A model generated the notes under the pieces. The model was not told the origin of the DNA, ran no database searches, and worked only from the letters and a program-made list of their open reading frames with translations. Below are positions 7,645 to 52,017 of a stretch of DNA of 64,000 nucleotides, piece after piece. Within the stretch, counting starts at the first letter, position 1. Every line of letters starts with the position of its first letter. The stretch is taken from IMG/VR virus record IMGVR_UViG_2667527945_000002, positions 17,984 through 81,983 of that record; one strand, 5' to 3'. The position numbers and the translations under genes were made by a program. Origin of the DNA: a virus (lineage: Duplodnaviria; Caudoviricetes).

Positions 7645-9066
7645 GTGGCTGAAAAATGGTTAGTTGAGCGTCTGACAAAGAGCAAGCAAAGCTCTCCCCA
7701 GTGGGTAGCGCTGGCTGAAGCATTGGAAGAGTACTGGGATACTAATTTTTTTAGCGACCTTCAAACCTTCGAAGACAGCAAAAACATCTTCACAGCCAAT
7801 GACGATCACTTAAACAAAAAGATCGCTGAGTTCGGTGATTACTTTGATACAGCTTTACCTATCGACTCGTCCGGCAAGCGCCTATCTATCTCATGGCAAC
7901 GCGCTAACATCCACGAAAAAGACACCATTGTTCCCTTTGTTAATGCCTTGTGCGTTAACTTTGCCGGCCTTGGTGTAACGTGGGAGCCGTTATACGCAAA
8001 TCAAAGCCAACCATACGCAAAAGATAACCTTTTCACAGAGCAAGAGATCCAACTCAAGCAGTGGGAACTCAATGATTTCTGGATGACGTCTCGTGGGAAG
8101 ATAGCTGTTGATTTAACCCATCTTCATCAACTGGGGATGGCAAAAGAAACCTTTGTTGTAATCGCTCGACGAGAGATTGAACGTTTACGCCCGTCTCACA
8201 TCGTTTATGACGGTGAATACTTCATTCTAACCATTAATTTCAACTATGAACCTTTGGGCTACCACGTTGAGCGACAAACCATAGGAGAGAAAGGCGGTAG
8301 CATGTTCTATCGACTTACTGCTTCTTTTGATGATCGTCCTGCCGATGTTCCTTGGCTTGATGAAAGTCCACTTTATGTTGAGCACCAGCGCGGTACCACA
8401 TCCAGTCAAACTGACTTTGTACTGGGTGGGATGTCATGGTCCTTAGACTTATTTGTTGATATTGGTGGCCGTCGCGTGCCGTTGGCGGGAAAGGAAGGGG
8501 ATGTTTTAGGCGCATTGCAGGAAATATCTAGCATTGAGCGTTATATACCCATTCAACACGGCAATATGCCCATGTCTGGTGCGTCATTGTCTGCAACCCG
8601 CTATCCCTGCATGACTTTCAATATGCATTATCAATTTGACGTAATGCCGGCAGACAGTGTGCCGACAAATGACCCTCTTCACGGTCAAAGTCGGATCACC
8701 GAAAGGCCATCCTTGATGAGTTATCAGTTAGGTGCGGATTGGTCTCTCGACCTTTTTATTACTACGAAGTCCGCCGCGATCCCCGTCTCAGGAAAAGAAG
8801 GGGACAAACTACCACCAATGAAGCAGCACAGTGCTCAACTGCGTTCGTTTCAGGTGCCAGTGAAACCGCATAGCACCACTCAAACCAAACAAACACAGTC
8901 ATTCTGCTCAATAGCCTACAGCGCCAAAGCAGATTGCATAGTTAGAGAGTATCCGTCTCTTCCTTTTGAGTTAAAACAACCAACAGATATAAACCAAAAC
9001 CCGTGGCTGGGGTTTGACGAGATCCCAGCTGACTTTGCACCATTAGACACACCACTTTGGAATTAG
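7645..9066 (+). CDS. P1 gp16-like baseplate/tail protein with internal repeats
   Basis: WL..RLT..KQ.S..W N-terminus, W.PLYA, MTSRG; FDxxPAD x3 and WSLDLF...GKEGD x2 repeats. Confidence 0.75.
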   Translation: MAEKWLVERLTKSKQSSPQWVALAEALEEYWDTNFFSDLQTFEDSKNIFTANDDHLNKKIAEFGDYFDTALPIDSSGKRLSISWQRANIHEKDTIVPFVNALCVNFAGLGVTWEPLYANQSQPYAKDNLFTEQEIQLKQWELNDFWMTSRGKIAVDLTHLHQLGMAKETFVVIARREIERLRPSHIVYDGEYFILTINFNYEPLGYHVERQTIGEKGGSMFYRLTASFDDRPADVPWLDESPLYVEHQRGTTSSQTDFVLGGMSWSLDLFVDIGGRRVPLAGKEGDVLGALQEISSIERYIPIQHGNMPMSGASLSATRYPCMTFNMHYQFDVMPADSVPTNDPLHGQSRITERPSLMSYQLGADWSLDLFITTKSAAIPVSGKEGDKLPPMKQHSAQLRSFQVPVKPHSTTQTKQTQSFCSIAYSAKADCIVREYPSLPFELKQPTDINQNPWLGFDEIPADFAPLDTPLWN

Positions 9067-9070
9067 CGCT

Positions 9071-9508
9071 ATGTCGACAAATCAACCTTGGCAGATTGCA
9101 GAGCTACTGCCCCGTTTTTACGAAAAAAATGCTCTATCAATTGCTGGATTGGCAAAACAATTCAAGATCGTAAAGTTTAAATTCGGTCATGATCCGTTGC
9201 TGGTGGATGACAGCCAAACCCCGCCAGCACTATCCCCGTTCAAACCAGCGGAAAACGACATCAAAAACGTTTTCTATGAAGGCACTATTAACCCTGCAGA
9301 AGATATTGTTTGGGCTAATGGTCGCTTATTGTTTCGCTGTATCATGCCTGAAAACACGCTGTCTGAACCAAAACAATATAGTCAGACGGGCCTTTATGAT
9401 GATGATGGCGATCTGGTGGCTGTCAGTATTGACCTGCCAGATTGGGTAACACCAGAAGAAGGCGTAAATACGCACCCATACGTCAACTTCCCGATCTCTG
9501 GAGAGTAA
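9071..9508 (+). CDS. P1 gpR-like tail fibre/baseplate attachment protein
   Basis: GLYDDDGDLVAV motif typical of tail-fibre N-terminal/collar proteins; synteny. Confidence 0.65.
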   Translation: MSTNQPWQIAELLPRFYEKNALSIAGLAKQFKIVKFKFGHDPLLVDDSQTPPALSPFKPAENDIKNVFYEGTINPAEDIVWANGRLLFRCIMPENTLSEPKQYSQTGLYDDDGDLVAVSIDLPDWVTPEEGVNTHPYVNFPISGE

Positions 9509-9511
9509 TGA

Positions 9512-10069
9512 ATGAACACATACCCACAACAACCGATTGACGATCTGAGAGTTGACACGGCGTGGCGTGAGAATTATTCAGGCGCTTCAATGAACCAAAA
9601 GCTCCATGGTTTGTTACCTAAAGGGGTGTACTCAGGCTTTGCGGTCAAACCAAAAACTGGTCTGACGGTTGAAATATCGGGAGGCAGTGAGCAAAACATT
9701 GCTGTACTGGAAGTTGGTACCTATTCACTGACGGCCAGAATGCCAAACGATGTGCTCAAGCAAGTCACTCTAACTGCCGGCAAAACCCAATACGTTGTTT
9801 TAGAAGCCCAATACGCGATGAATCAAGCATCCACTGTTGGGATCTTCGTGCGTGACGCTGTACCAAGTAACGCCATTATGCTTGCAAAAGTAACACTAGC
9901 GTCTGGGGCGACGTCTGTACCCGTAGACAGTATCGAGCTGGCCCTTCCATCTAAACCCGTTACCGCTGCCGATTATGCCGAACTCGCGGCATACACGATC
10001 GACAACGGACGTCGAACCTTAGAGTTACAAGAAGAAGTCAATCAGCTCAAGAAGCATCTAGGATTGTAA
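9512..10069 (+). CDS. short protein matching the constant N-terminal part of P1 tail fibre S
   Basis: YP..., W/Y.E.Y....N.K..G....G.Y.GF..KP..G motif of the P1 Sc N-terminus; only 185 aa. Confidence 0.65.
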   Translation: MNTYPQQPIDDLRVDTAWRENYSGASMNQKLHGLLPKGVYSGFAVKPKTGLTVEISGGSEQNIAVLEVGTYSLTARMPNDVLKQVTLTAGKTQYVVLEAQYAMNQASTVGIFVRDAVPSNAIMLAKVTLASGATSVPVDSIELALPSKPVTAADYAELAAYTIDNGRRTLELQEEVNQLKKHLGL

Positions 10070-10782: not shown

Positions 10783-12295
10783 ACCCAGCAAAAGGATTAA
10801 AAGTATTTGCCATGCCGGACCCATTGGCAAAAGGTTTCACTCGCTCACAAGTCAGCGAAGCTATGTATCAGCTAACAGCCGATCCAGAACAAGCCGCATT
10901 GATGATGGAAGTTGAGCCTTTATCTGTCATGGACGCCGCTTATATCGAGGGTGAGCTGGTAGAAAAACAAGATGGGTTTGTGCTGGATGCAGTAACAACC
11001 AGCTATGCTGTATTTCCTCGCACCATGAAAGCACTCGCCAGAGCACTTAACCGAGCGTTATCAAGCAGCGATGTCACCGTAACCGGCCATGAGGTTGGTC
11101 AGCCAAAGAAAAACAACCTGTTTGCTACCGTGGCCGCGCAATTTACGCTAAGCGATGGGCAGGCGATTAGTGTTGTATTTCACGCCCCTGACGAAGATCC
11201 AAAGATATTCAAACCAGACGATATTGTTATTGCTTTTCGATGGTTGCTGAATAAACGAGACATTACACCCGTTGTTGCCCCTGAAATGAGTAAGGGGAAA
11301 ATGCGAGAAGTATCTCTAACTACGATCGGGAAGCGCATTGGCCATTTAGCCGCTGAAAACTCCAAAGCGTTCCAAGCCAAGCAAAAAGAGGTGACGGCAG
11401 CAAGAGAGCAGCTCGCCAGCTTGGAAGAATCCGCAAACAGCTTACTGGATGAGCTTAATAAGCTGACCACTGAAGTGTCTCAACTTGAAGGCCGCGATCA
11501 AGAGCTTGAGCACATGGTCACGGTCAAGTCCGAAGAGCTAGCAACTCGTAAAAGTTACAATGATAGTCTACGTGAAAAATCGCCGCTCTGAAAGCTGCAG
11601 CGCCCGAACCAACTCCAGAGCCAACAACTGAACAGGGTGAAGGCGAACCGCAACCAGAAGAAAATGCCGCATTAGAGCGTTTTCAGCTGGTGGATCCGTC
11701 ATTGTATAACGATGTGCTTTCATCAATGAGCACGATCACGGCTATTGACCGTGGGGAAGAGAAAGGGTTAACTCGCTCACTCTTTGTCAATTCCATTGTT
11801 AACAAGTTAAAGACTCGACATAACAATGGTCAGTCTGAAGTCGTTGATGCCGCATTAGATTTTATCTCTGAAGCACAAAAAACGCTTGATAAACCAATCA
11901 TTTCAGCTCGAAATGGCGTTTGGGCTTTGCATAGCAATGCTACTGGCAGCAAGGAAGAGAAGGATGAACAGGCCACGCCGGAACCGGATGCACCTGAAGC
12001 GTCGCCAACGTCTGCAGATACGCCGTCACCAGTGGAACCTGATACACCTGCAGAATCCCAAGAAGGGGAAAGTAGTGAAATGAATGAGCAATCTATAGGT
12101 GATAAGCCTCAAGCCGTACTAACATTAGAGAATATTGTTAATGGTGTACATGATGATGTTGCTGCAGATGATGTGCTTGAAATGATAGAAGAAGCCAGCG
12201 AAGAGTTAGAAAAACTAGAACTGGTGGAGCAATATGACGCCCTAATCGGCTCAGCGGTAGAAAGATACGCAGAGTTAGATGAGAAGCAGGAGTAA
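10779..12295 (+). CDS. darA: DarA antirestriction protein (split by a 1-nt deletion in the A-run at ~11575)
   Basis: RTMKALARALN, LSDGQAISVVFH.P, LLNKRDIT..VAP motifs; adding one A joins the 10779 and 11690 ORFs via REKIAALKAAAPEPTPEP. Confidence 0.85.
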
Positions 12296-12612: not shown

Positions 12613-14356
12613 AAAGAAGGCTGTCATTTCAGCCATTCAAGCGTCCAGCAAGATAGACGGTCTATGTGCCGTCTTCCTTGGCGCCTTTGGTGAAGTGATG
12701 AGTGCTCAAACGCATCAAGCTAAAGCACTCAAACAAAAATTGATCGACACCGAGGATGATTTAGAAAAATTCCAAGTTTGGCGAGACATTGTTTCGCTGC
12801 AAGTGGAGCTTAGCCGCTACGATGATAATCGTTTAGAAGCAATCGCTGAGCAAGGTGCAGACCTTAACAGTTTGCGACAGGCTTACATTGTGCCTGATGA
12901 TCTTGACGAACGTCAGCGCCAATTCTGGCAACAGCAAGGCGACAGCTTTCTCAATGAGGTGATTTCCCCAGAGAAATCAAAGTTACTCAAAGAGGTGGCG
13001 AGTAGCATCAATGAGTTACTCCGAAGTAATCCTGATATCAATGAAAGAATTGAACGTCTCGAAGATGAATACATATCGCCATTGGCAGAAAAAGCCAGAG
13101 GGGTGATAGGTAAGATCCATGAGCAAGGGCAAAGCGAAGTGCTTATGTCTGAGTTTGAAATGATACGTTCAGCCATTGAATCTGCTCACAGAACTCAAAT
13201 TGACCCTGTTCTTATGGCCTCAAGTGAAGAGTTGGACCACGTAGCGCGAGAGCAGCTTCAATCACTGCAGGAACAAAAAAAGCGCCTTGGTACCGAGTTG
13301 ATGTCAGATGTCTACGACTCTCTGTTGGAGCATTCAAGCATTTCTTCAGAAGAAGCAGACCTATGGGCCAAAACTCAAGAGATCAGCGCTTCAGCGGTCA
13401 CTAGGATGCGAAAGTCGGGCTATCCTGAGTCAGAAGTTAGACGCGACATGGCAACGTACTATCGCTTGATTAATGGACGTCTGGATAATGTTCGCCTTGT
13501 AACTACAGGGAGTAAGCGTGCAAGCGCCATTATCAATACGGCGACCATTGATATTGACCATGATTTTGACCGTCGAACCTTGTTTCACGAAATGAGCCAC
13601 TTGTTAGAGTCGGATGAGTCGGTCAAGTTGGCCAATCAACGATTTATTCAAAAACGCGCTTCTGGTACCCCTCAGCGCCTTAGTGAGCTGACCAATAACC
13701 GATCCTACAAAAGTGATGAAGTCGCTATCCCTGATAACTTCTACTCACCATATGTCGGTAAAGTCTATGAAAGTGGCGCAACTGAAGTGGCTTCCATGGG
13801 GATCCAACAGTTCTCATCACTAGAAAGCATGTATGCGCTTTATGACAGTGATGATGAAATGTTTACTCTGATGGTCGGTATGATGACAGGGGTTAATGAC
13901 ACGCTCATTCAGCGTCAAAAGAAACAGTTCGACAAACAAGTCAATGGCGCTGGATTTAACGTTGCAGTGAAAAAGCTCATCAACCAGCTATCTTGGCAAG
14001 ATGGTCATAGGATGACGTCTGATGAAGCTTGGCAGCAAGCATTGACAGGGAAAGGAAAAACTAACGCACACAATAAAAAGTGGGGCTGGAAACGCACACT
14101 AGGCAGTTGTGAGCTTTTCCCCGCTAAAGCACCACGCCAGAGAAAGCAGATTTATGGAGTGACAGTGGCTGGTGGCGATAGCGAACAGTCGAAACGCCAC
14201 TTTTTTAGAGAAAGATTGCAGGCTGATATCTTCGTGTATATTCACGAGTTGTCGGTTCGAGGTATTAAGCCATTACCTCAAAGCGCTTTCTATCTTGCCT
14301 GCAACAATCAAGCACCTGATTGGTATCAACCTGATACTGAATTACCACTTATTTAA
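12587..14356 (+). CDS. ddrB: DdrB-like protein with zincin (HExxH) metallopeptidase-like domain
   Basis: YRLINGR, LFHEMSHLLE, Y.GKVY, ATEVASM match the P1 DdrB C-terminal half. Confidence 0.75.
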   Translation: MSKKDSQPKKKAVISAIQASSKIDGLCAVFLGAFGEVMSAQTHQAKALKQKLIDTEDDLEKFQVWRDIVSLQVELSRYDDNRLEAIAEQGADLNSLRQAYIVPDDLDERQRQFWQQQGDSFLNEVISPEKSKLLKEVASSINELLRSNPDINERIERLEDEYISPLAEKARGVIGKIHEQGQSEVLMSEFEMIRSAIESAHRTQIDPVLMASSEELDHVAREQLQSLQEQKKRLGTELMSDVYDSLLEHSSISSEEADLWAKTQEISASAVTRMRKSGYPESEVRRDMATYYRLINGRLDNVRLVTTGSKRASAIINTATIDIDHDFDRRTLFHEMSHLLESDESVKLANQRFIQKRASGTPQRLSELTNNRSYKSDEVAIPDNFYSPYVGKVYESGATEVASMGIQQFSSLESMYALYDSDDEMFTLMVGMMTGVNDTLIQRQKKQFDKQVNGAGFNVAVKKLINQLSWQDGHRMTSDEAWQQALTGKGKTNAHNKKWGWKRTLGSCELFPAKAPRQRKQIYGVTVAGGDSEQSKRHFFRERLQADIFVYIHELSVRGIKPLPQSAFYLACNNQAPDWYQPDTELPLI

Positions 14357-14401
14357 TACTCTTTAGTTTAGCCGACTCCCTATCAACAGGGAGCCGGTTC
14401 A

Positions 14402-14968
14402 TTATTCGCATCCTAAAATCCTCGTCATGCCTTCAACCACGTTTAATCGGATCCGTGCTAACGAAAGTTTTAGCTTAGCTTGCGCTACGCCTTCCTCTGC
14501 TTGCTCCTTTGCCGTGGGTGATACCTTTGCTTCGCTGTGAAGTACAGGTAAGTCTCTATGAGAGAAAAAATCCAACACATGAGGCTGAAACAGTTCAACG
14601 GGCGGTGTTGAATACCCTTGATGTACTGCTCGTTCGTAAATCCGCTCAAACTGAGCATGATTTGCGTGCTTGCAGTAAGTTAAAAAGCGATCCCGCATGG
14701 TACGGTCTGCCACACCAATCATCATTGCTGCATCATGGATGCGTGCTCCGAGAAAGATAGACAATATCGCCTTTTGTGTTTCGTCAGTGTATAGGAAGTT
14801 AGTCTTTTCCTCTGACGATACTGGTGAGGTCGCCGACTCCTGAACGACCTCGTTTGGATAGTTCGTGACATCCATTTCTTTTCTGCGTCCTGCTGACTCA
14901 AGATAGCCTGTCCCAAAGTCCGTTTTTTCAATATGAGTTATCACAGTATGAAAGTAGTCACCTAGCAC
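14402..14968 (-). CDS. LexA-regulated HTH-like protein, paralogue of 31887..32303
   Basis: GTG start with GGAGA RBS; GA....A...GV......YC..AN.....ERI...A.HQ shared with the 31887 ORF. Confidence 0.7.
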   Translation of the reverse strand: MLGDYFHTVITHIEKTDFGTGYLESAGRRKEMDVTNYPNEVVQESATSPVSSEEKTNFLYTDETQKAILSIFLGARIHDAAMMIGVADRTMRDRFLTYCKHANHAQFERIYERAVHQGYSTPPVELFQPHVLDFFSHRDLPVLHSEAKVSPTAKEQAEEGVAQAKLKLSLARIRLNVVEGMTRILGCE

Positions 14969-15020
14969 TACGTCTTCTCCTTTTCTTATTATGGAAGTGC
15001 AACCTTTGCACTAACATAGA

Positions 15021-15040
15021 TACTGTTTAAATATACAGTA
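15021..15040. promoter_or_regulatory. LexA (SOS) box
   Basis: TACTGTTTAAATATACAGTA = CTGT-N8-ACAG with TA flanks, ~50 bp upstream of the 14968 start. Confidence 0.85.
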
Positions 15041-15132
15041 TCTTACATCTTTTTTATATAAATCAAAGACTCAATAAGGGCGAGTATGCATAAGAAGAGA
15101 TATGTTGTATGTAGACAAAAAAGTCCACAAAA

Positions 15133-15882
15133 CTAACGAACTCTGAATGAGTCCGCCTTTGTGATTACTTTGAGTGATGAATGACTAGACAATAAAGTAC
15201 GGAGTTCAAACACGCTATAGCCCGTCTTCTCTCGAATTCGAGCCTTCATCGAACGCACGGTAGAGGGCTTAATCCCTAGCCTTTCTGCGGATTCTTTATC
15301 GGATAACCCCATTCTTTTGCAAAAATAAGACGAGACTCAGCCATGCTGAGCGGGTTTGAAAGGTCGGCAAAGTCAGGCACCTTCACATGCCTAGAATCAC
15401 TGACTCGAAAAAATCATTTATTAAAAATGCGGTACCAATCAAGTTTCCATTCAGGTCAATCAACGGGTATTTCTGCGTTTCAACGGTATGCAATTTGACA
15501 CGATCACCAAAAAGTAATCGCAATCTGCAAAAACCATCGCTTGGCGCTCTTCCATAATGAGCTGATCTTGCATTGCATACCCTTTGGCAACCTCATCACT
15601 CACACAAGTTGGCATTTCTTCTAGTCTCTTGCCGTAAAAACTGTACCCACAAGGCAAATCAACCAGCTCCCGATAATGGCAATTCATTACAAGGTATTCA
15701 GAGTTAACCCCTTTGATACCAGCGGGACCCGGATATCGCATCAGTTCAGCGACAAGGCAGTCACAAAGCACGAACTGTCCTGAGTGGATGCCATGATGAA
15801 TGGACGTGTCCTTTCGTGGATAGCATCGCCGGCACAGGTGTTTATTTTTATTTAAGCAATCGTTATAGCTCTTTGCGGTCAT
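15133..15882 (-). CDS. VqmA-like PAS + LuxR-type HTH transcription factor (three 1-nt homopolymer deletions in this assembly)
   Basis: PGPAGIKGVNSEY..MN..YREL...G....EMP...QD...KYPLIDLNGNLIGT (PAS) then LSMAE...GLSDKESAERLGIKPSTVRSMKARIREKTG (LuxR HTH) after restoring one T at ~15510, ~15410 and ~15322. Confidence 0.75.
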
Positions 15883-16079
15883 TCTATCCTCGAAAATATC
15901 TGTTAGACCGCCAACTGTAAAACGTAATTTATATATTAATTATTATGTTAATTCTTATTGTAGAACAAATTTTGACAAATTTATGTGGATGCCTGTATTC
16001 ATGTGGCTTGTTACCCTCCAAATGAACATTAATGTTTGCCCATCAACAGGAGGATGGCGAGCCTCCCGCCATAAGCTGA

Positions 16080-19000
16080 ATGTACAAATTCTTAATAACA
16101 ACCCCTTTTAAATCAGAAGTTTCCATTCTGATTAGTTCCGAGTGGGACCAAAAATCGAACGTCGAAATGGAAGGTTCAGACGATGACAAAAAGATGATAG
16201 AAAATTTCATCCGTTTTCATGGTATGACTCCCGACGGTCGCTTAGCTGGCCTACCAGAAATAGCACCAATGAGCGCTCATTATTCATTTACAACTAAAGC
16301 CGCTGTAGAACAGGGCTTTTCTATTACGTTTATTCAAGGTGAGCAAAAACCATACCCACACCGTGATGTGATCTTTGATAGCGCCAGTGATGACGCCCCA
16401 TCGTTCACCACCAAACCACAGTCCTTTAAACTGCAAGACCGTTACCAATTTCAAAACTTACCCATTTCGATTGAGAACAAAGCTGGCACGAAACGCTCTG
16501 GCGTCGATCCGGATGGTAGCGAATGGTCCGTCTCAATGCATTATGACTACGGATACATAAGGTCAACCAAAGGCACCGATCAGGAAGGTATCGACTGTTA
16601 CGTTGGACCAAACCGAAAAGCCGATCACGTCTACATCGTAAAACAACATGCGATCGAAAAAGTAAAGCAGTGGTCGTCTAAGTATTGCCCTCAATGCAAA
16701 GAACACACGCACGACTGTGCATGTCCTGAATTCTTTGATGAAGACAAAGTAATGCTGGGCTTTGATAATAAAGAACAAGCAAAAGCAGCCTATCTGAAGC
16801 AGTACGATTCCGATCTGTTCTTAGGACCGATCTCTACCATGCGCATAGAAGACTTCAAGAAAGCGATCGCTGATGCTGATGGAGAGGAATTAGACCTGCC
16901 GTTACAGTTTGTTCATGATCATGCCGTGCTGGATAGCGCAACGAACGAAGAAATCAAAGCGCTACAAAACGCAAAAGATATCAACGAATTAGAAAGCGTT
17001 TTCAATCAATTATTTACTCCTACCAATTATGCTGATGAGCGCGATTTCGGTCTAAAAGCAAGCGGGGTAAAAACAAGAGAAGCGATCAATAACAAGGTAA
17101 AAGCGATCGTTGATCGAATTAAGGCGGCAAACTGGGATACCAGCAGCTTGAGCGCCGAAGATTATGATCTGCTTGTACAGTACTCTGGTCGTGGGGGACT
17201 AAGTGAAAACAGCCAGTACGAGTACTACACACCAACTTACATCGCAGAAGGGTGTTGGGACTTATTGAACGCTAACGGCTTTGATAATGGTAACGTGCTA
17301 GAACCTTCAGCGGGTGCCGGTGTGTTTAATGCGACTAAGCATCAAGGCGTGAAAATGACGGCAACAGAAATCGATCCGATCAGTTCTGCCGTAAATAAAA
17401 TCCTTCACCCTGAAGACAACGTATTTAATCAGTCATTTGAAACGATGGCCGTTGAATCTCCCGACAATCACTTTGATTCCGTTATTGGCAATATTCCATT
17501 TGGTAGCGCTCGTGGCGCGTCGGCCCACGACGATCCTGACCATAAAAATGAAAAACTGATTGAACGTTACTTTATCAACCGTCTCATCGACAAAGTGAAG
17601 CCGAGCGGATTACTGGTGCTCGTGGTTCCCGTCAATATTGTCCGTGAGCGTGGTAAGGCGTGGCAAAAATGGCGAGCTAAAATCAGTAAGAAAGCGGAAT
17701 TTCTTGGTGCTCATAAACTCCCAAGCAAAACATTTGGTAAACAAGGGACTGGTGTTGTCACCGATATTATCGTTCTTCGTAAGCACTCAAAGAATGGCGC
17801 TGAGAAAATAGCTCAACTCCCAATGGCACAACTGCAGGAATCTAACGTGCTCTGGGATACCTTTATTGAAGGTAAATGGTGGGACCGCGATGGCAAACCG
17901 TTCATTCACGGTAAGTTCGTCGCCAAAGATGCGAGCAAAATCCGTGATGATGACAAAGTTATCCGTGATTCAAGCGTAACTGATGTAGCGCTCAAACGAA
18001 AACTAGCCGCTAAGTTCCACTCTCGCATAGATTGGGAAGCTCTTGATACGGCAGAGCCTGTGATTCATAACTATGTTGAAGGCGATCGTCGAGTGATTGA
18101 TGAACGCACCTACGAGTTCACTCGTGGTAACTGGGAACCAGCAGACAGCCTGCAGGGAATGACAACCGCCATAGACAAAAATAAGTATGGGGTATCTTCG
18201 CTTGAAGCACTGCAGGGGCTGCTTGAAAGTAATCATGGGTTAATGTCGCTTTCGGTTAAGCAAGCCTTTGCTGCGATGAAAGCATGGGGCCATTTATTCA
18301 GTAAGCCCCAAAAACAAGCGATTGAGTTTGCAATGACTCAACCAAGTGATGAATACCGAGAGCAAATTTTCAGAGGCTCACTTATTGGCGCGGATCTCGC
18401 TCGTTTCCAAAATGACACCAACCAAGGCGAATGGAATGCGACAGAACAAATGCGCCTTCAAGAGCTGGTGGCGAATGAAATCAATAAATATGGGCATCCA
18501 AAACAAAACAAGGGATTGATCCTCGCTGGTGAAAGCTCTCGCTACTTTGGTGTATTTTCTAACGCCATGGATGAAAACGGAGATTACTCCACTCTACTAA
18601 CCGGTGATGTGAGCACAAAAGGACTGGCATTTGACGATACCAATCCACATGCCATCGTTGAGCACCTGTATCTACGAGAGGGCATGACTCATATTACGCT
18701 AGAAGACATACAGCAGCTGTACAAGGGTAAAACACCTATCCAATCGCTGTCTGATCTGGCCGACAACAAAAACCTTGCCATTCACCCTGACGGGCTTGTA
18801 ATGCCAATGACTCGCTTTTGTTCAGGAGACGTTTACCAAAAAGTGCTAACACTAAGCCATGCACTTAATCTTGAGACGGATCCAAAGCTAAAAGCCAAGT
18901 ATCAGCAACAGCTTGAAGAGATAGAGCAGCGACGCTTCAAAACAGAATCAGAAAACATTGCTTTCTCAATGCGCCACAAGTGGATTGACCGCAAATATGT

Positions 19001-22000
19001 TCTCGAATTCATGCACGAAAAAGGGTATTCCAACTTGGATTACCTCGTGGATAAAAAGCAGGTCGCACAAGATGATGATACTGGCAGTAGCTATGTAGAG
19101 AACGTTAAGATTCGTGATACCAGATCTCCTTTTGGTGAGTTCGTGGGTTATGACGATACTCAAGGCTTTCACAAGCAACTTAATAACTGGCTGAATGGCG
19201 GTAACGTCACCAGTTCAAAGCAAGAATATATCGAAGAATACAAAGAGCGCGTCTCTCGTTTAGATGAAGAGTTCCGCCTTTGGATGCAGCAACACAAGGA
19301 CATTGACGATCTCTCTGAACTATATAATCAAAAATTCAACTCATACATTCCATTTGAGCACTCTGATTCAGATTTAGGCTTAGAAGGCGTCAGCGCCATG
19401 GTTAAACCTCATGGTTATCAATGTGCCGCCGTTCGTCGCTTGTCAGAAGATGGTTCCGGTATTCTTGGTTTTGATGTTGGTCTTGGCAAAACCTTCAGTG
19501 CTTTAGCGCTGGCCGCATATAACAAGCAAATGGGCCGAGCGAGCAAGACGTTGATTGTCGTTCCTAACTCTGTTCTAGCGAACTGGTATCACGAAGCTAA
19601 GATGTTCCACGGCAAGCTGGATAACGCTTTATTTGTTGGCTTTAAGCCCAAGCAGGACAAAGAAGGACAAATTCAGAGAGAGCCAGTCAAAGACGAGAAG
19701 GGCAATCCTAAGAAAAACAAACACACAGGCGAAGTTGAGTATCAAGACATCTTGATCAAAGAATCCGCTGAAGAAGTGTTTGATAAGATGCACCAAATAC
19801 CACAAACGTCTAAATCGTTAGTGGTCATGACCTTTGAAAAGTACAAAGAAATTCAGATGCGCCCCGTCAACAAGCACAAGTATGCGGACAAGTGGGTAGA
19901 AAAATCACTAATTTCTGATCAAATGGCAGCAAGTACTGTTGCGGGTGATGATTTCAGCCTTGGTAAAGGCAAAGATAAGATCAGCTATAAAGAAGCGGTA
20001 CGAAAAGAAGCCCTGCAACAACGATTCCTTGAAGATGGTGGTCATAAGAAGGGCGAATACCCTTACTTTGAAGATATGGGGATCCAATCGGTAATCATTG
20101 ATGAAGCCCACGCATTTAAAAATAGCTTCAAAGCCGGCGACAAAACCGCAAATATCGCATACCTCCCTAATCCAACGGAATCACAGCGTGCTATCGACAT
20201 GGCAATGAAGATGGCTTACCTGCGTGACCAAAACGAAGGGCGCGGTCCGGTTCTATTGTCAGCAACACCTGTCACCAACTCGCCACTAGAAATATTCAAC
20301 ATGCTGTCACTGGTCCTGCCGGTAGAAGAGTTTGAAAAATTCGGCGTTTATACTGCAGACGATTTTGTACGTGTATTCGGCAAGGTCGACAATATAGAAA
20401 AAATGACCGTGCGCGGTGACATCGTTCAAAAAGACGGACTGGTTGGCTTCCAAAACTTAGATGGACTGCGAAACCTTTTCCACCGTTACACTCTCATGCG
20501 AAATGCTGAAGACGTTAACCTAGCGTTACCTGATGCGCCAGAATCTCATGAAAATGTTGATATGACCGACGATCAGAATTCGGCCTATGAGACACTGCGT
20601 GAAGAAGCTAAAGAAGCCAGCAAACCAGCAAGACAACGTAGCCCTAACGCTCGTGCTTTATTTGCTGTTATGCGCGATATGGACAAAGTAACCACGGACA
20701 TGGATTTGTACAATCAAACCATGACCTTTACTTTCCCTGCAGCAAAGGCAAAAGCTGTCGATCAATTAATTGCCGCACTACCACCGTCTATCGAAGCTGA
20801 GCGTATTGAGCAGACAGAAGATGGGGAAGAGGTAAAGCGCAAAGTTTCTATTGAGCTTGAATACCAACGCAGTGAAGAATCCGAGTCTATTGTGCTGGTG
20901 GTTCCTGATGTTTACGAACAAGCCGTTCTTGATCGTCTAAATGACGCTCTTATCAAGTCGTCAGATGTTAGTCACCCATTACCACCAAAATACGCGAAAT
21001 TGATTGCCAACTTAACAGCAGAGCTGGAAGTGAAAGGTAAGCAAATCATCTTTACGGAAGAGAAAACGCAGCATCACAAACTCAAGCGCATTATCGTTAA
21101 TCAGCTTGGCCTTGATGAGAAACAAATCGGCATTATTAATGGCGCCGACGCTGCAGGAGCGAAGCTTCAACGTATTGCTGATGCGTATAATGCTGGTGAT
21201 ATCAAAATCGTTATCTGTAACAAGAAAGCGGAAGTGGGCGTAAACCTCCAAAAAGGAACAAGCGCAATCCACCACTTAACGCTCCCATGGACTCCTGCTT
21301 CAATCCAGCAGCGTAATGGCCGTGGTGTAAGGCAAGGCAATACTGCCTCAAAAGTCAGTTTGTACTACTACCTTGGTAAAGGGTCGTTTGATGGGTACCG
21401 CCTTGATCTGCTTAATAAGAAAAAGAGCTGGATGCGTGACTTATTCAACGGCACTGAGTCTGAGGCCGTCAATGGTAACGCCATTGATAACGACGACTAC
21501 CTTGATATGTTTGAAGCGGATCCTGAAGCAGCTAAAGCTAAGCGAATGGAACGCTTGGCACAAAAGCAAGCTGAACGTAAACGCAAGTCAGATCTAAAGT
21601 GTGCCGTAGACTTGTCTCAAGTGATTGGTCTACGCAGCCAGCTATCGAATTGGGAAACCAACAAAGCCGAAGACTACAACCGCCTCATTGAGCGTAAAAA
21701 CAAAGCGCAAGCTTCGCTATCGAGAGTCAAAGAAAAAAGCGAAGACAGCGGTAAAGCTGAACAAGCACTGGCTCGTGTGAATAAATCTATTCAAGATCAC
21801 GATGAAAAATGGCAAGAAGACAAACGAAAGCTTGAATCTAGACTGTCACAACGTGTGACGTTCCTGAAACAGAAAGCCAGTGCCGGTGAATTGCCGTTTA
21901 ATGGTGAAATCATAGAAAACCCAGAAACCGCCATCGTAGCGCGTGATGGTACTGTGCTCACTATTGGGGATCATCTTGAGACGGACTTTGGTGCCATTCT

Positions 22001-23129
22001 TCGCATTGAACAAGTAGAGCAGGAGTCTCGTAGTGTGCATTACTCTGTACCTGTCGGGGATGTCTCTTACTACTGGTGGGGACGTCGCAATGGGGAGCAC
22101 ATGAAAGCGGACCTTGATTCGATGCCTGAAGGTTTAAAGCGTGTTTCTTTGTCAGATGATGAGGTGAGAGTAAAACAAATACTGTCTATCACTTACAGCT
22201 ACAGTACGCTTCCAAAACTGAAAAAAGATCAGTTCACTAAATATCGTGATGACATCAACCTACAAAGCTACGGTAATTTCCTATTCCGTGCGGACGGTCA
22301 ACTGGCGATTGCCAGCATTGACCAATACCAGCGAGACCAGCTTGTTTTCCCAGATACCAGTGATAACGCGCTAAAACGCGAAATAGCACTGCATTACTTA
22401 AAGTTACGCCGAGAAGGTAAGCCAGCTTTTGCATGGCGCGACATCGTTAAGCCGTTTTTTGGTGCTCACTACGATCAAGAAATTGCAGAGTATGGTGATA
22501 AAGCGTCTCAAGGGGAGGTCTTAGCCGTTTGTGATCGGGCTTGGAATGATTACCAGCCAACGCTCATGGAGGGTATTCAATTGTCCTCTTCGCTGAAAGC
22601 CTTACCTGAAGCCATTGCGAAGCATCAAGCTTACCGATTGGCTCGCCAAGACTTCCAAGAAAACGCAGAAGACAAAGCCGCTGAGCTGGGTGATAACCGT
22701 GCTGAAATCAATCGCTGGGTGCGTGAATACATTGCCGGATTGGAGAGTAAACTACTTGATGATGCAGAAACGGCTAAACGCCTCGCTGCCGATGCTGAGC
22801 TAGAAGAGTTAAAAACGAATCCGGCATTCAAAGAACTTGCAGCAGAGGTTAAAAAAGGCTTTGACGATATCGGTATTATTGCTCGTTACAATTACAAAGA
22901 TGTGCCTATCCCTCGCAACGGGCGCTACCGTGCGCGTACATTGCCTGCATTCCAGCATTTCTTTTTGCAGGACAAAAACGGCAAAGCAGGGAAGCTATTT
23001 TCAGCGAAAGATATTCTGAAGAATCGCTTTGGTGCTAAATTCTGTGCGGCGGAAGGAGATTGGGAGGGCAGTTGGTGGTACTTCCCTGCTAGCGTTGATG
23101 TCGCTGAGATATTTGAAATAATCGCCTAA
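16080..23129 (+). CDS. darB: DarB: N6-adenine methyltransferase + SF2 helicase antirestriction protein with N-terminal pyrophosphatase-like domain
   Basis: EYYTP, VLEPSAGAG, GNIPF, GFDVGLGKT, IDEAH, SATPVTN, QRNGRGVRQG; N-terminal ISIEN..G..RSGVD.DG..W...YDYGYI...FDEDKVMLGF. Confidence 0.92.
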   Translation: MYKFLITTPFKSEVSILISSEWDQKSNVEMEGSDDDKKMIENFIRFHGMTPDGRLAGLPEIAPMSAHYSFTTKAAVEQGFSITFIQGEQKPYPHRDVIFDSASDDAPSFTTKPQSFKLQDRYQFQNLPISIENKAGTKRSGVDPDGSEWSVSMHYDYGYIRSTKGTDQEGIDCYVGPNRKADHVYIVKQHAIEKVKQWSSKYCPQCKEHTHDCACPEFFDEDKVMLGFDNKEQAKAAYLKQYDSDLFLGPISTMRIEDFKKAIADADGEELDLPLQFVHDHAVLDSATNEEIKALQNAKDINELESVFNQLFTPTNYADERDFGLKASGVKTREAINNKVKAIVDRIKAANWDTSSLSAEDYDLLVQYSGRGGLSENSQYEYYTPTYIAEGCWDLLNANGFDNGNVLEPSAGAGVFNATKHQGVKMTATEIDPISSAVNKILHPEDNVFNQSFETMAVESPDNHFDSVIGNIPFGSARGASAHDDPDHKNEKLIERYFINRLIDKVKPSGLLVLVVPVNIVRERGKAWQKWRAKISKKAEFLGAHKLPSKTFGKQGTGVVTDIIVLRKHSKNGAEKIAQLPMAQLQESNVLWDTFIEGKWWDRDGKPFIHGKFVAKDASKIRDDDKVIRDSSVTDVALKRKLAAKFHSRIDWEALDTAEPVIHNYVEGDRRVIDERTYEFTRGNWEPADSLQGMTTAIDKNKYGVSSLEALQGLLESNHGLMSLSVKQAFAAMKAWGHLFSKPQKQAIEFAMTQPSDEYREQIFRGSLIGADLARFQNDTNQGEWNATEQMRLQELVANEINKYGHPKQNKGLILAGESSRYFGVFSNAMDENGDYSTLLTGDVSTKGLAFDDTNPHAIVEHLYLREGMTHITLEDIQQLYKGKTPIQSLSDLADNKNLAIHPDGLVMPMTRFCSGDVYQKVLTLSHALNLETDPKLKAKYQQQLEEIEQRRFKTESENIAFSMRHKWIDRKYVLEFMHEKGYSNLDYLVDKKQVAQDDDTGSSYVENVKIRDTRSPFGEFVGYDDTQGFHKQLNNWLNGGNVTSSKQEYIEEYKERVSRLDEEFRLWMQQHKDIDDLSELYNQKFNSYIPFEHSDSDLGLEGVSAMVKPHGYQCAAVRRLSEDGSGILGFDVGLGKTFSALALAAYNKQMGRASKTLIVVPNSVLANWYHEAKMFHGKLDNALFVGFKPKQDKEGQIQREPVKDEKGNPKKNKHTGEVEYQDILIKESAEEVFDKMHQIPQTSKSLVVMTFEKYKEIQMRPVNKHKYADKWVEKSLISDQMAASTVAGDDFSLGKGKDKISYKEAVRKEALQQRFLEDGGHKKGEYPYFEDMGIQSVIIDEAHAFKNSFKAGDKTANIAYLPNPTESQRAIDMAMKMAYLRDQNEGRGPVLLSATPVTNSPLEIFNMLSLVLPVEEFEKFGVYTADDFVRVFGKVDNIEKMTVRGDIVQKDGLVGFQNLDGLRNLFHRYTLMRNAEDVNLALPDAPESHENVDMTDDQNSAYETLREEAKEASKPARQRSPNARALFAVMRDMDKVTTDMDLYNQTMTFTFPAAKAKAVDQLIAALPPSIEAERIEQTEDGEEVKRKVSIELEYQRSEESESIVLVVPDVYEQAVLDRLNDALIKSSDVSHPLPPKYAKLIANLTAELEVKGKQIIFTEEKTQHHKLKRIIVNQLGLDEKQIGIINGADAAGAKLQRIADAYNAGDIKIVICNKKAEVGVNLQKGTSAIHHLTLPWTPASIQQRNGRGVRQGNTASKVSLYYYLGKGSFDGYRLDLLNKKKSWMRDLFNGTESEAVNGNAIDNDDYLDMFEADPEAAKAKRMERLAQKQAERKRKSDLKCAVDLSQVIGLRSQLSNWETNKAEDYNRLIERKNKAQASLSRVKEKSEDSGKAEQALARVNKSIQDHDEKWQEDKRKLESRLSQRVTFLKQKASAGELPFNGEIIENPETAIVARDGTVLTIGDHLETDFGAILRIEQVEQESRSVHYSVPVGDVSYYWWGRRNGEHMKADLDSMPEGLKRVSLSDDEVRVKQILSITYSYSTLPKLKKDQFTKYRDDINLQSYGNFLFRADGQLAIASIDQYQRDQLVFPDTSDNALKREIALHYLKLRREGKPAFAWRDIVKPFFGAHYDQEIAEYGDKASQGEVLAVCDRAWNDYQPTLMEGIQLSSSLKALPEAIAKHQAYRLARQDFQENAEDKAAELGDNRAEINRWVREYIAGLESKLLDDAETAKRLAADAELEELKTNPAFKELAAEVKKGFDDIGIIARYNYKDVPIPRNGRYRARTLPAFQHFFLQDKNGKAGKLFSAKDILKNRFGAKFCAAEGDWEGSWWYFPASVDVAEIFEIIA

Positions 23130-31886: not shown

Positions 31887-32303
31887 ATGGAAAAGACCAA
31901 TACAAATCAAGAACGTGGAATATCACTCCAAAAAGAAGAGAAAATTGCGTGTGCCATCTTAAAAGGTGCAAAAACCGCAGATGTTGCGGCAGTTAATGGC
32001 GTTAAGTACGCTGCCTGCCGTGAAATCCTTCATAAGTATTGCCGTCGTGCTAACCCTCAAGCCTATGAGCGGATTAATATCGACGCAGCCCACCAAGACT
32101 GTCATAGCCCTTTCCTAGATCAGCTCCGTGAGAACTCAAACTTGTTTATTTCTCAAGATGAGCCTCGTGATGCTGAACAGCTTCGCCGCGAAATCGAACA
32201 GCAAAGTGAGCGCTTAAACAGTGCTCAAATAACGCTGCGCTCAGAACGCACCATTCTAAGCCAGTTGGAAGCAGAGCTTGCAGCTGCGACTCAAAGCAAG
32301 TAA
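31887..32303 (+). CDS. HTH-like protein with C-terminal coiled coil; paralogue of 14402..14968
   Basis: ILKGAKTADVAAVNGVKY...YCRRANP..YERI...AHQ. Confidence 0.7.
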   Translation: MEKTNTNQERGISLQKEEKIACAILKGAKTADVAAVNGVKYAACREILHKYCRRANPQAYERINIDAAHQDCHSPFLDQLRENSNLFISQDEPRDAEQLRREIEQQSERLNSAQITLRSERTILSQLEAELAAATQSK

Positions 32304-34514: not shown

Positions 34515-34900
34515 GTTACCCACTTGTGGAAAACCTGTTTATATACAGTGGTATAAGTACTGTATATACAGTGGAATTTAGCAGATTTTAAGCATAAGTT
34601 GAGATACCAAAATGCATAAATAGAGATACCCGTTTGCATAAGTTGAGATACCAAAACGCATAAATAGAGATACCCGTTTGCATAAGTTGAGATACTAGCA
34701 AAGCATAAGTTGAGATACCATTTTTAATATTTAACCCTTTTAAAACATACGCTTGCATTTGTTGCTTGGTGATGTTTTGGGAGGCAACAACCATCTTATA
34801 ACCATATATAACCATTTAATAAACCATCTTATAACCTATTAAATAAAGAAATAATAAAAGGAAAAATTCTTTTTGATTTATCTAAGAAGAAAGAAAAAGG
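34515..34900. repeat. second iteron origin: six 17-bp iterons, DnaA-box-like sites, AT-rich tract
   Basis: GCATAA(G/A)T(T/A)GAGATAC at 34592, 34614, 34636, 34658, 34680, 34703; TGTGGAAAA upstream; AACCAT repeats and AT-rich region downstream. Confidence 0.85.
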
Positions 34901-41826: not shown

Positions 41827-42339
41827 ATGCTGTTAAACGAATTGAATATTCACCTACTTTCTCTGCTATCTGAGCACAAAAAAGCAACGGGTTATGGCCT
41901 AACAAAAATGATGAGCACTAGCCATGTATGGCGTGCGTCTCATCAACAAATCTATCGTTCACTGAACAAGCTAGCCGACGATGGCTTTCTTGCTTGTCAG
42001 GACGAGCCGCAAAAAGGTAAGCCTGATCGTAAGCATTATTCACTCACTGAGGTGGGTATCAAAAAGCTGAATGAGGCAGTAGAAAGCGCCCTTCCTTCAA
42101 TCAAATCACTGCACAGCATTCGCACTGTCATGTTGAATGTGGGTAATCAAAATTACTTTGAAGAGCTACTGGAACAGTTAAGAGCTGAGATCCAGAAAAC
42201 AGAGCTGTTACTTGAAAAAGCTGAAACCCCGTCAGAACGTATTTCTATGCAGCGTGAGATTTACATTAATCGCGCTGAAGAAAGCTATTGCGTAGAGGCT
42301 TTGGAGTACCTTCAAAGCGCGAAACAAATAGCTGCTTAA
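41827..42339 (+). CDS. AphA-like PadR-family transcription regulator
   Basis: ATGY.LTK....W.ASHQQIYR.LNK......C..EPQ.GKPDRK.YS.T..G closely follows the Vibrio AphA winged helix. Confidence 0.85.
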   Translation: MLLNELNIHLLSLLSEHKKATGYGLTKMMSTSHVWRASHQQIYRSLNKLADDGFLACQDEPQKGKPDRKHYSLTEVGIKKLNEAVESALPSIKSLHSIRTVMLNVGNQNYFEELLEQLRAEIQKTELLLEKAETPSERISMQREIYINRAEESYCVEALEYLQSAKQIAA

Positions 42340-49489: not shown

Positions 49490-49939
49490 ATGAATTATGG
49501 TCAATGTGTCCATTGTGGCACTGATGTGTATCAAAGTGATGAGCGCGTCAACTTGTCAATTGGTGTTTCGCATTTTACATGTGATCAGGAATATAAGCTT
49601 TCTTGTGATCTTGAAATGAAAGAAATGATGGAGCAAGAGAAAGTTCAGGCTAAGCGTGAAAATAAGCTTCTTGCACGTCTCAAGCGCACTTTAAAGCCGA
49701 AAATCTACAGTTTTATTGAGAACCAGTTTGAAGAGCACAGGGTGAACAGTATTGACGTTGTTGGCTTTGATAAAATATCCGGCAATAGAGAGCGAGCAAG
49801 GGATTGGTACGGTGAGAGTGTTGCGGTTCGTTATATCTACGATGACACGAGTACTGATTATTGGGGTGACGGTTACGGTGGTTTTATTTGGATTCCCATT
49901 GGTAAGGCTCGTTATCTTCAAATGCATATATGGGGTTAG
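49490..49939 (+). CDS. hypothetical protein
   Basis: 149-aa ORF, last of the operon. Confidence 0.55.
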   Translation: MNYGQCVHCGTDVYQSDERVNLSIGVSHFTCDQEYKLSCDLEMKEMMEQEKVQAKRENKLLARLKRTLKPKIYSFIENQFEEHRVNSIDVVGFDKISGNRERARDWYGESVAVRYIYDDTSTDYWGDGYGGFIWIPIGKARYLQMHIWG

Positions 49940-49976
49940 GTGACTATGTTACGTTAAATCGCGCCCATACGATTAA

Positions 49977-50002
49977 AGACCAGCCTTAGCGCTGGTTTTT
50001 TT
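49977..50002 (+). terminator. intrinsic terminator
   Basis: AGACCAGC-loop-GCTGGTTTTTTT. Confidence 0.75.
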
Positions 50003-50248
50003 GTGTCTGAATTTCACAGAAAAGCCGGATAAAAAGTGAGACTGGCGCGTAATCTCTGGTTTGCCTCTTGTTTTCTCAATCCCTTGTTATACGTGGCCTC
50101 ACAGTGCCTAAGTGAATCTATTGCATAGGAGGATTCACGGTATAGGTCGCCACACCTCGATAAAAGTGTGTTGATGCGATAAATCCCCCTTCGAAACACA
50201 CTACAGGCTCAGCTAACGCTGTCTTTTTGTTAATAAATCGGAGGGCTT

Positions 50249-50497
50249 ATGCCTGAATCAATCAATCTAACCGCGATGGGTTTCACAGCTCTGACCGGTG
50301 TCGGTATGAAGTTAGTGTTTTTGTGCCTTGCTTTGGTCGTTATGACCATGATGCGCAAGGTTATTTTTGGTGAAGACGGGGTGAAAAATGACTGGATTGC
50401 AAAAGCTAAAGAAAAGGGCGATTTCCGCTCTGTTGCTATTTACCAGTGCGTTATGTTCGGTAGTACCTGTTTCCTCCTTGGCAGCGTCCTTTCCTGA
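50249..50497 (+). CDS. putative holin (2 TM)
   Basis: 82-aa hydrophobic ORF at the head of the lysis cassette. Confidence 0.6.
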   Translation: MPESINLTAMGFTALTGVGMKLVFLCLALVVMTMMRKVIFGEDGVKNDWIAKAKEKGDFRSVAIYQCVMFGSTCFLLGSVLS

Positions 50498-50996
50498 CAA
50501 ATATGACACTCAAATCAAGAAGTCAGCAAAACGCTGGCTTCCTGCTTATGAGGCGGTCTATGGGATGGAGATTTTAAAGGCTCAACTGTATCAGGAGAGC
50601 CTTCTCGACCCGCAGGCCGTCAGTTATGTCGGGGCGGCAGGGTTAGGGCAGTTCATGCCAGCAACGTGGGCCGAAGTATCGGGCCAGCTTGGCTTTAGTG
50701 GTGTGTCAGTGCATAGCCCTGAACACAATATTGAAGCTGCTGCTTTCTACATGGCCAGTCGGCTTAATGTGTGGCAGTCCCCCCGTCCTATGTCAGACCG
50801 TTTATCGCTTGCTTGGGCTTGCTATAACGCTGGGTGTGGTTGGGTTATCAAGGCGCAGAAGCGCTGTGGTAATCCGTCACCTTACAAAGACATTATTCAG
50901 TGTCTTCCGCAAATAACAGGTAATCACTCGAAAGAGACCATTACCTATGTTGAGCGGATTTGGCGGTACTGGATGCAGATGAGGATGCTCAAATGA
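50388..50996 (+). CDS. SLT-domain lytic transglycosylase endolysin with N-terminal signal sequence
   Basis: AQLYQES, GAAGLGQFMPATW, YNAG, ET..YV motifs. Confidence 0.88.
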   Translation: MTGLQKLKKRAISALLLFTSALCSVVPVSSLAASFPDKYDTQIKKSAKRWLPAYEAVYGMEILKAQLYQESLLDPQAVSYVGAAGLGQFMPATWAEVSGQLGFSGVSVHSPEHNIEAAAFYMASRLNVWQSPRPMSDRLSLAWACYNAGCGWVIKAQKRCGNPSPYKDIIQCLPQITGNHSKETITYVERIWRYWMQMRMLK

Positions 50997-52005: not shown

Positions 52006-52017
52006 TAGAGGTTAGCT

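Follow-up and report, generated by a model that had tools for sequence, protein, structure and literature searches.

A gene for a transcription factor of 250 residues, which was found to contain a PAS domain followed by a LuxR-type helix-turn-helix (HTH) domain, was recovered on the minus strand at positions 15133-15882 of a stretch of 64,000 nucleotides (the whole stretch is called the window) from the virus record IMGVR_UViG_2667527945_000002 of IMG/VR. The record, a single-contig virus record of 81,983 bases, was found to represent a P1-like element akin to p0908, a plasmid of Vibrio, and the limits of the gene were taken from the open reading frame (ORF) of its relatives and from near-identical contigs. 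Profile comparison identified the regulator as a distant homologue, over both domains, of VqmA, the receptor of the autoinducer DPO, and the substitution pattern of the gene showed it to be under purifying selection. The overall best explanation, which is considered probable, is that the gene is intact in nature, was split in the record by undercalled bases, and encodes a VqmA-related transcription factor of 250 residues which would give the element a separate input to induction.

In the record, the regulator gene was represented by four ORF pieces on the minus strand, at 15460-15882 (140 residues), 15383-15523 (46 residues), 15276-15386 (36 residues) and 15133-15312 (59 residues). The end coordinates of these pieces modulo 3 were 0, 1, 2 and 0, that is, three successive one-base shifts followed by a return to the first frame. 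The first frame break was found in the A5 run of the plus strand (a T-run in the gene) at 15509-15513 with the gap at codon 125, followed by the second in the A6 run at 15408-15413 with the gap at codon 160 and the third in the A5 run at 15321-15325 with the gap at codon 187, after which the original frame was restored. In an alignment of seven DNA sequences, the window contained three one-base gaps and zero insertions within the regulator gene, and the contigs of three public sequencing runs (X6, X3 and X8) each contained an extra A behind positions 15508, 15407 and 15320. The original prediction had proposed a hidden protein of about 250 residues that is restored by one T in each of three T-runs (near 15510, 15410 and 15322); it was confirmed by the three gaps against 6 of 6 relatives and by the longer runs of X6, X3 and X8, and the peptide strings which it had quoted were all present in the four ORF pieces.

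The blastn search of the gene region against plasmids gave seven records, all from Vibrio, which were 77-82% identical and covered at least 98% of the query, and the same search against the phage collection gave no match. Six of the seven plasmid records were compared (record H6 was left out). The p0908-like plasmids, which had been named earlier as the place to look for an intact ORF, were found to contain the 250 codons uninterrupted in 6 of 6 cases, and the frameshifts were absent from these relatives; in two plasmid records a shorter coding sequence from an internal start was annotated. The viral contigs L009, L012 and L010 also carried the open gene, and L011 was judged by eye only. The ratio of non-synonymous to synonymous substitution rates (dN/dS) among the relatives was 0.00-0.12 (12 computable of 21 pairs). 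The window, when placed in the frame of the relatives with the three gap codons dropped, was open over all 247 codons. When it was compared with the relatives, dN/dS was 0.03-0.12 in every computable segment; the two segments which the record places out of frame gave 0.03-0.07 and 0.07-0.12. These values show purifying selection on the regulator gene, as judged from the aligned codons.

The PAS ligand-binding domain was placed at about residues 48-160 (15405-15741, minus strand), where it spans the first and second breaks, followed by the LuxR/GerE-type HTH DNA-binding domain at about residues 178-232 (15190-15353, minus strand); both limits are approximate, the former being drawn from Pfam PAS_4 and the structural model and the latter from the alignment to VqmA, weak Pfam matches and the model. 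The predicted domain order was borne out: the Cys/His-rich leader comes first, then the PAS domain and then the LuxR-type HTH. The E-values of the PAS_4 match on the relatives ranged from 2.4e-5 to 3.1e-4, and 2 of 4 exceeded the gathering score. The regulator was assigned to phrog_27555, 'transcriptional regulator', in PHROG, and NCBIfam contained no VqmA-specific model and gave no informative match. When PDB was searched with phmmer and with the family profile, the V. cholerae and phage VP882 VqmA proteins were matched over residues 29-223 (E 1e-4 and 4e-6), and all four matches of the family profile to PDB sequences at 0.01 or below were VqmA (E 4e-6 to 1e-5). For a wider comparison set, 22 of 53 profile matches were taken (205-252 residues, one long match) and 21 were aligned, the 31 long multidomain or short proteins being left out; these 21 sequences are regarded as VqmA-family proteins because their alignment matched VqmA structures at E 1e-50. 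The hhalign comparison of the regulator family profile with these 21 proteins gave a probability of 99.8%, with E 2.6e-28 and 22% identity over 186 columns (residues 44-231).

The AlphaFold model on the joint alignment had a mean predicted local distance difference test score (pLDDT) of 73, with about 80-93 in the PAS core and below 50 for residues 1-23, and it contained HTH helices at residues 181-191, 196-203, 207-221 and 225-232. With this model, the Foldseek ranks 1-8 were all VqmA (E 2e-11 to 5e-9), followed by EL222 at 5e-5. The VIA-align Z score was 16.1 for 7DWM, VqmA of phage VP882 (185 residues aligned), and 14.2-14.3 for 6IDE, 6UGL and 6KJU, VqmA of V. cholerae, whereas generic PAS domains scored 11-13 with a root-mean-square deviation of 2-3 Å. 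The PAS fold is present in the model, and VqmA, which had been put forward as the closest characterised relative, held that place both in sequence and in predicted fold. Some of the evidence on the protein pulls the other way. The HTH matches in Pfam (GerE, Sigma70_r4_2 and HTH_23) were weak and all below the gathering score, and the model built on the family alone was poor (pLDDT 55) and was set aside. The joint alignment contained VqmA-family sequences, so that a VqmA-like fold is partly expected and the model is not independent of the homology. The identity of the regulator to VqmA was only 20-25%, and the regulator family is therefore placed as a distant branch of the VqmA family.

The N-terminal extension of the regulator (residues 1-47; 15742-15882, minus strand) was found to be specific to the family and to have no counterpart in VqmA. 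The extension contained conserved C9, C17-x2-C20, H29 and C40-x-C42, and its cysteines were conserved in 7 of 7 members that cover it; C68, C78, C93 and C189 were also conserved beyond it. None of these nine positions was Cys in any of the 21 VqmA-family sequences, and each was conserved wherever covered. The dN/dS of the extension was 0.00-0.05 (12 computable pairs), that is, strong purifying selection. The presence of these conserved Cys and His residues suggests an N-terminus that may sense metal or redox state, as was also surmised in the original prediction. In its strong form, the regulator would be a redox or metal sensor and not a signal receptor, with the conserved cysteines binding zinc or an iron-sulfur cluster or forming disulfides, and it would report oxygen, oxidative stress or metal status to the prophage. 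The CxxC...CxC motif of the N-terminus, the three to four further cysteines in the PAS domain and the selection on the N-terminal segment all favour such a sensor. The activity of V. cholerae VqmA responds to disulfide formation, and some PAS domains hold iron-sulfur clusters through four cysteines. However, the extension gave no Pfam match (E up to 10), no metal-binding family and nothing usable in Atlas, and the model of the N-terminus was of low confidence. The polar pocket residues that VqmA uses around DPO also remain invariant in the family, which argues that a small ligand is still bound. A sensor of redox state or metal in place of a signal receptor is thus considered doubtful, although the two inputs, redox or metal and small ligand, are not mutually exclusive.

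The ligand pocket was compared residue by residue with VqmA by an HMMER alignment to 6UGL. The regulator was found to contain K57 for K23, Y70 for Y36, Y102 for F67, Q105 for Q70, D106 for D71 and D120 for D85, followed by D122 for H87, T136 for F99 and K138 for K101, and the equivalent of H97 was placed differently in the two alignments. The mapped pocket residues were invariant in 9 of 9 family members and were also carried by the pieces of the window itself. The residue map given in the original prediction (K23, Q70/D71, D85 and K101 kept, F67 changed to Tyr and F99 to Thr) was reproduced by this alignment. The available part of one structural report gives F67, F99 and K101 as the main contacts in DPO recognition by VqmA, with DPO binding abolished by F67A and K101R and weakened about 10-fold by F99A (10.1101/2019.12.19.881847). 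At these three positions the family contained Lys for K101, Tyr for F67 and Thr for F99, each in 9 of 9 members, and Tyr at the F67 position was also present in 4 of the 21 VqmA-family sequences. The DPO pocket is, by alignment, partly kept and partly changed.

The sensing of an autoinducer, or the control of lysis, by the regulator is plausible. A stronger version, along the lines of the first reading of this stretch, would make the regulator a genuine DPO receptor that works as the VqmA of phage VP882 does, with host DPO at high cell density switching on an antirepressor and so leading to lysis. The homology to VqmA over both domains, the origin of all named records from Vibrio, the Tyr shared with part of the VqmA family, and the fact that all 9 members keep the equivalents of K101 and, as Tyr, of F67, the sites whose mutation abolished DPO binding in the portion of the report consulted (10.1101/2019.12.19.881847), are in line with this. 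The presence of Thr for F99, a change found in the whole family, counts against it and also against the wider reading of a VqmA-type receptor, and so does Asp for H87 against DPO itself. The identity of 20-25% to either VqmA is low beside the value of about 43% between two DPO-binding VqmAs that is given in the accessible text of one paper (PMC8284805), and the nine conserved cysteines, foreign to VqmA relatives, suggest a different or additional input. The sites bound by two known VqmAs are, in the same portion of that paper, GG-N6-CC of the PvqmR type and GG-N9-CC of the Pqtip type (PMC8284805); with up to 3 mismatches allowed, neither 18-nt site was matched anywhere in the 64-kb window. Beside the regulator, no small antirepressor gene of the qtip kind was identified in the opposite orientation, the ORFs of 30-55 residues in the 197-nt spacer being seen in the ORF list only. 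A DPO receptor of the VP882 kind is rated unlikely. The Rfam search of 14300-16300 (E up to 1) gave no RNA family and no VqmR-like small RNA.

The three breaks of the regulator gene were most likely homopolymer sequencing errors, that is, one-base undercalls in T-runs, since near-identical copies carry the extra base, the shifted segments contain neither stops nor raised dN/dS, and other conserved genes of the record are broken alike. One search of public runs gave 20 rows, from 12 studies, in which the stretch was present in whole or in part, and the runs X1, X3, X6 and X8, from four studies, were compared with the window over 1201 nt. In X6, X3 and X8 the whole 1201 nt was found in one contig each, with 3, 1 and 4 substitutions, respectively, and with the extra A at all three sites. 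The contig of X8, of 3.5 kb, came from an RNA-seq library with a different organism label and spans 14900-16100 with the intact form of the gene; it may represent transcription or carried-over DNA and is no proof of transcription. At least six further conserved ORFs were found to switch frame against p0908 at single-base gaps, at window positions 11579, 26344, 29022, 39539, 47301 and 56285, and they include a replication initiator of 345 residues (29022) and a DEAD/DEAH helicase of 583 residues (47301). Runs of A or T adjoin 4 of these 6 gaps, and one more break, at genome position 13033, was found beyond the limits of the window. The search with an exact word of 45 nt taken from the regulator gene gave no match in genome, viral or metagenome contigs, and a homologue search with the 140-residue piece for longer proteins gave the known 250-residue clusters only, at 82-87% identity, the allele of the window itself being absent.

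The explanation by sequencing error has to be set against several observations. The run X1, which is the best and deepest holder (depth 75.8) and probably the sample of the record itself, has the same run lengths as the window at each of the three sites, and no other contig form was listed there. Of about ten breaks, three lie within one gene of 750 nt, compared with about one per 10 kb over the rest of the record, and a uniform error rate does not predict such clustering. The record retains 84 runs of A or T (67 of 6 bases and 17 of 7), which implies that undercalling was not systematic. The agreement of X1 and the clustering of breaks would also suit a true pseudogene, in which the three one-base deletions are real in the strain, the product is an N-terminal fragment of at most 125 residues with 15 out-of-frame residues, and the regulator is lost here; the description of p0908-type elements as defective (PMC4132613) points the same way. 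However, X3 contained one substitution and three indels over 1201 nt, a ratio very unlike natural divergence, and each of the three changes removes a single base from a run of 5-6 identical ones. The contigs of X1 were very short (longest piece 630 nt) and contained alternative one-base-deleted forms at 14923, 15245, 15252 and 15893, a pattern typical of indel-prone reads. The absence of stops and of raised dN/dS in the shifted segments and the similar breaks in the replication initiator and the helicase also speak against gene loss, and a pseudogene is regarded as improbable. Programmed frameshifting or phase variation, in which slippery or hypervariable T-runs would switch the gene on or off, is very unlikely, since, although all three breaks lie in homopolymer runs and jointly restore the frame, the runs are only 5-6 bases long, no shift is needed in 13 of 13 other copies (6 plasmids, 4 viral contigs and 3 read sets), X6, X3 and X8 contained no length variants at the sites, and three consecutive programmed shifts are, to our knowledge, without precedent. 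With undercalled bases as the favoured cause, the practical lesson is that the ORF track of the record hides real genes and is unreliable at such sites, because the frame is broken by single bases about ten times in the record, often at homopolymer runs.

The regulator family was found to be small, rare and, among the collections searched, restricted to mobile elements of Vibrio. The family contained 8 clusters at 90% identity among 5.8 billion proteins. The profile search of 1.84 billion representatives gave 4 matches below 1e-10, all from the family itself, and members scored 1e-26 or better. The next matches, with E from 1.8e-9 to 1e-3, were VqmA-like proteins about 230 residues long. Among the 185,579 species genomes, one contained the family, namely Vibrio owensii LMG 25443, on a contig of 79 kb. 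Elements from V. cholerae, V. vulnificus, V. parahaemolyticus and V. campbellii are among the relatives, and the carriers found were only P1-like Vibrio phage-plasmids and a second phage type with contractile-tail genes. For the first group, most ORFs of p0908 of at least 100 residues were found to have colinear matches at 70-97% identity over the 82-kb record. The P1-type genes looked for were those for DarB, a Cre-type recombinase, ParA and myovirus structural proteins, and the DarB-like gene in the window and the annotation of p0908 agreed with the assignment to this group; the sequence records of the relatives were circular. The p0908/pVv01 group has been described as P1-like, with pVv01 as a plasmid prophage that is induced by mitomycin C (PMC4132613); with this description, the synteny and the DarB-like gene, the P1-like nature that had been assigned to the element held up. 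The second phage type was represented by the nearly identical viral contigs L010 and L011, in which the regulator lies between contractile-tail genes and a repressor-family gene. The divergent member P0014 (205 residues) was not located in viral or metagenome contigs, so that no third genomic context was obtained for the candidate operator described below.

The regulator gene is followed, 4 nt after its stop codon, by the inverted repeat TGTGGAC-N6-GTCTACA (gene strand) at 15110-15129, which is a candidate operator or a hairpin of the mRNA 3' end. The arms of the repeat were invariant in 7 of 7 P1-like sequences, and the repeat pattern had a single match in the 64-kb window and a single match in L010 (10744-10763), each just after the stop codon of the regulator. 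In L010, the first ~75 nt after the stop codon were found to align with the P1-like sequence, including the related repeat and a CATAAT hexamer at the matching distance. The -10-like hexamer CATACT at 15083-15088 (minus strand) lies 31.5 nt from the centre of the repeat and would put the repeat at about -43.5. The block TTATGCATACTC, which contains CATACT, was conserved in 7 of 7 P1-like sequences and aligned with CATAAT in L010. A position of about -43.5 is a usual one for activators of the LuxR type, which led to the proposal that a promoter downstream of the regulator gene is activated by the regulator itself.

Several points detract from this proposed operator and promoter. The sequences in which the operator pattern was counted were also those from which it had been drawn up, and the pattern from the P1-like sequences alone needs 3 mismatches to reach the site of L010. 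About one such match is expected per 20.7 kb, that is, about one by chance, and the position right after the gene is thus the informative part of the L010 repeat. The repeat also folds as an RNA hairpin (z = -3.4), and a simple promoter scan did not call the proposed promoter because there is no -35 element. As rejected candidates, an iteron look-alike at 15087-15103 (13 of 17 positions against the 17-nt iterons of the record) was taken as chance, since its matching part was not conserved among relatives, and a terminator-like match at 15157-15135, inside the 3' end of the regulator gene, was disregarded.

The repeat is followed by a LexA (SOS) box, TACTGTATATTTAAACAGTA, at 15021-15040, upstream of a gene of 188 residues (14402-14968, minus strand) which is co-oriented with the regulator, lies immediately downstream of it and was assigned to phrog_25672 (function unknown). 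The LexA box pattern was found at one site in the window (two strand rows), with 0.05 expected, and its core CTGT-N8-ACAG was kept in 7 of 7 relatives. The 188-residue protein had no match in Pfam or NCBIfam, and its Atlas leads to HTH families reached at most 0.83, which is chance level; its gene was found to be paralogous to the ORF at 31887-32303 (plus strand), with 28% identity and E 1e-9. The 188-residue gene is predicted as the likely regulated output of the regulator. On its other side, the regulator is separated by a highly conserved divergent control region of 197 nt (15883-16079), which contained an AT-rich palindrome at 15925-15953, from a DarB-like antirestriction gene of 2349 residues (16080-23129, plus strand) with methyltransferase and SNF2 helicase parts (PHROG; Pfam SNF2-rel_dom, Eco57I and Helicase_C). 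Two promoter-like sites on the minus strand of the spacer (15978-15951 and 15921-15893) were no more than shuffles give. The DarB-like protein was found to be 90% identical to its p0908 homologue over all 2349 residues. With the gene identified through PHROG and Pfam and with the LexA box in place, the regulator stands, as was first read from the sequence, divergent from a DarB-like gene and upstream of a gene preceded by a LexA box.

From these elements a mechanism is proposed in which the regulator would act as a dimer and its activity would be set by a small molecule (a DPO-like pyrazinone or another), by the redox state, or by a metal sensed through the cysteines. The regulator would bind the 7-6-7 inverted repeat that directly follows the stop codon of its gene and, from about -43.5, would fire the promoter that reads into the LexA-boxed gene of 188 residues. 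Transcription from the corresponding promoter of the second phage type would run into the repressor gene in antisense direction. The outcome would be an input to prophage induction that is separate from DNA damage and that converges on the same output as LexA, and the regulator may in this way sense a chemical or redox input to the host-killing decision of a plasmid-like phage. If P1-like phage-plasmids and an unrelated tailed phage both carry a distant homologue of VqmA, vibriophages would have recruited the scaffold more than once, the altered pocket with the added Cys-rich module may mean that a different cue is read, and the presence of an inducible relative among the carriers makes the idea directly testable. 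The regulator may tentatively be taken further, as a member of a second, independently evolved class of VqmA-derived phage receptors, with a Tyr/Thr pocket and a Cys-rich metal or redox module, carried by circular P1-like phage-plasmids and by a contractile-tailed Vibrio phage, in which a chemical or redox cue and the SOS response would converge on one effector through an operator behind the receptor gene; this is a possibility that is held with reserve. In the literature covered, to which the lists of screened phage genomes and modules that supplement the Nature paper of 2023 and the mBio paper of 2025 do not belong, no paper was found that links the regulator family to VqmA or mentions the regulator gene.

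In comparison with chromosomal VqmA, the regulator was found to share the plan in which a single PAS domain precedes a LuxR-type HTH within some 250 residues (the family norm is about 230-250), the homology over both domains and the equivalents of K23, Y36, Q70, D71, D85 and K101, and VqmA was its top structural match. The regulator differs in Tyr for F67, Thr for F99 and Asp for H87, in the identity of 20-25%, in the additional Cys/His-rich N-terminus of about 45 residues with four further conserved cysteines, and in the lack of a GG-N6-CC site of the PvqmR type near its gene, which is borne by a phage or plasmid whereas that of VqmA is chromosomal. VqmA of phage VP882 (7DWM), the best VIA-align match, is likewise a phage-encoded VqmA homologue on a plasmid-replicating Vibrio element, and both genes lie close to elements of a lysis-lysogeny switch, which for the regulator are a LexA box with the downstream gene in the P1-like element and a repressor-family gene with a LexA box in L010. 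Among searchable papers, phage VqmA homologues were only known from VP882-like linear plasmid phages that bear a telomerase, in which they activate the counter-oriented qtip (10.1101/2022.09.16.508337). In contrast, the regulator is distantly related to them in sequence and is carried by a circular P1-like element or by a phage with contractile-tail genes. In the VP882 module, qtip is counter-oriented and lies between repA and telN, whereas the neighbours of the regulator are the co-oriented LexA-boxed gene of 188 residues and the divergent DarB-like gene of 2349 residues, and the window contained no site of the Pqtip type.

The modules of a transcription factor and a small ORF in linear plasmid-like phages (Silpe et al., Nature 2023) follow, in the part of the source consulted, the logic that is proposed here, with a phage transcription factor that activates an adjacent gene and gives SOS-independent induction (10.1101/2022.09.16.508337). 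Those modules differ, within the same part of the source, in that they sit on linear phages, either between repA and telN or close to the par genes, and use counter-oriented small ORFs, whereas the target proposed here is co-oriented, larger and LexA-boxed. EL222 and other one-component regulators with a PAS or LOV domain and a LuxR-type HTH have the same two-domain plan (Foldseek E 5e-5 to 1e-4), but they gave far weaker matches than VqmA, with 12% identity, and regulators of the EL222 type need a flavin chromophore.

Further observations were made on the carriers and on the rest of the window. In L010, a LexA box with the core CTGT-N8-ACAG was found at 11364-11383, just upstream of an ORF of 76 residues (11408-11638) which had no PHROG match and is divergent from a repressor-family gene of 109 residues, and the same box and ORF were present in L011; the arrangement looks like that of an SOS-controlled small antirepressor. 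The DarB-like protein contained, at residues 119-191, a match to Pfam InPase (PF18823, E 2.4e-34) ahead of the methyltransferase and SNF2 helicase parts. The window was found to contain six 17-nt iterons at 34592-34720, with a spacing of 22 nt and two alternating variants. In p0908, positions 49890-52805 were annotated with a diversity-generating retroelement, which contained a reverse transcriptase, Avd and a SUMF1-like target; the record contained, at genome positions ~9018-10035, before the window, a match to residues 1-42 only of the p0908 target of 409 residues and no match to the reverse transcriptase ORF, and the retroelement cassette seems to be missing from it. A protein of 170 residues of the PadR family was found at 41827-42339 (plus strand); its best solved relative was the V. 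cholerae activator AphA (1YG2, E 2e-20, residues 10-124), and by this match it is a second look-alike of a host regulator on the same element.

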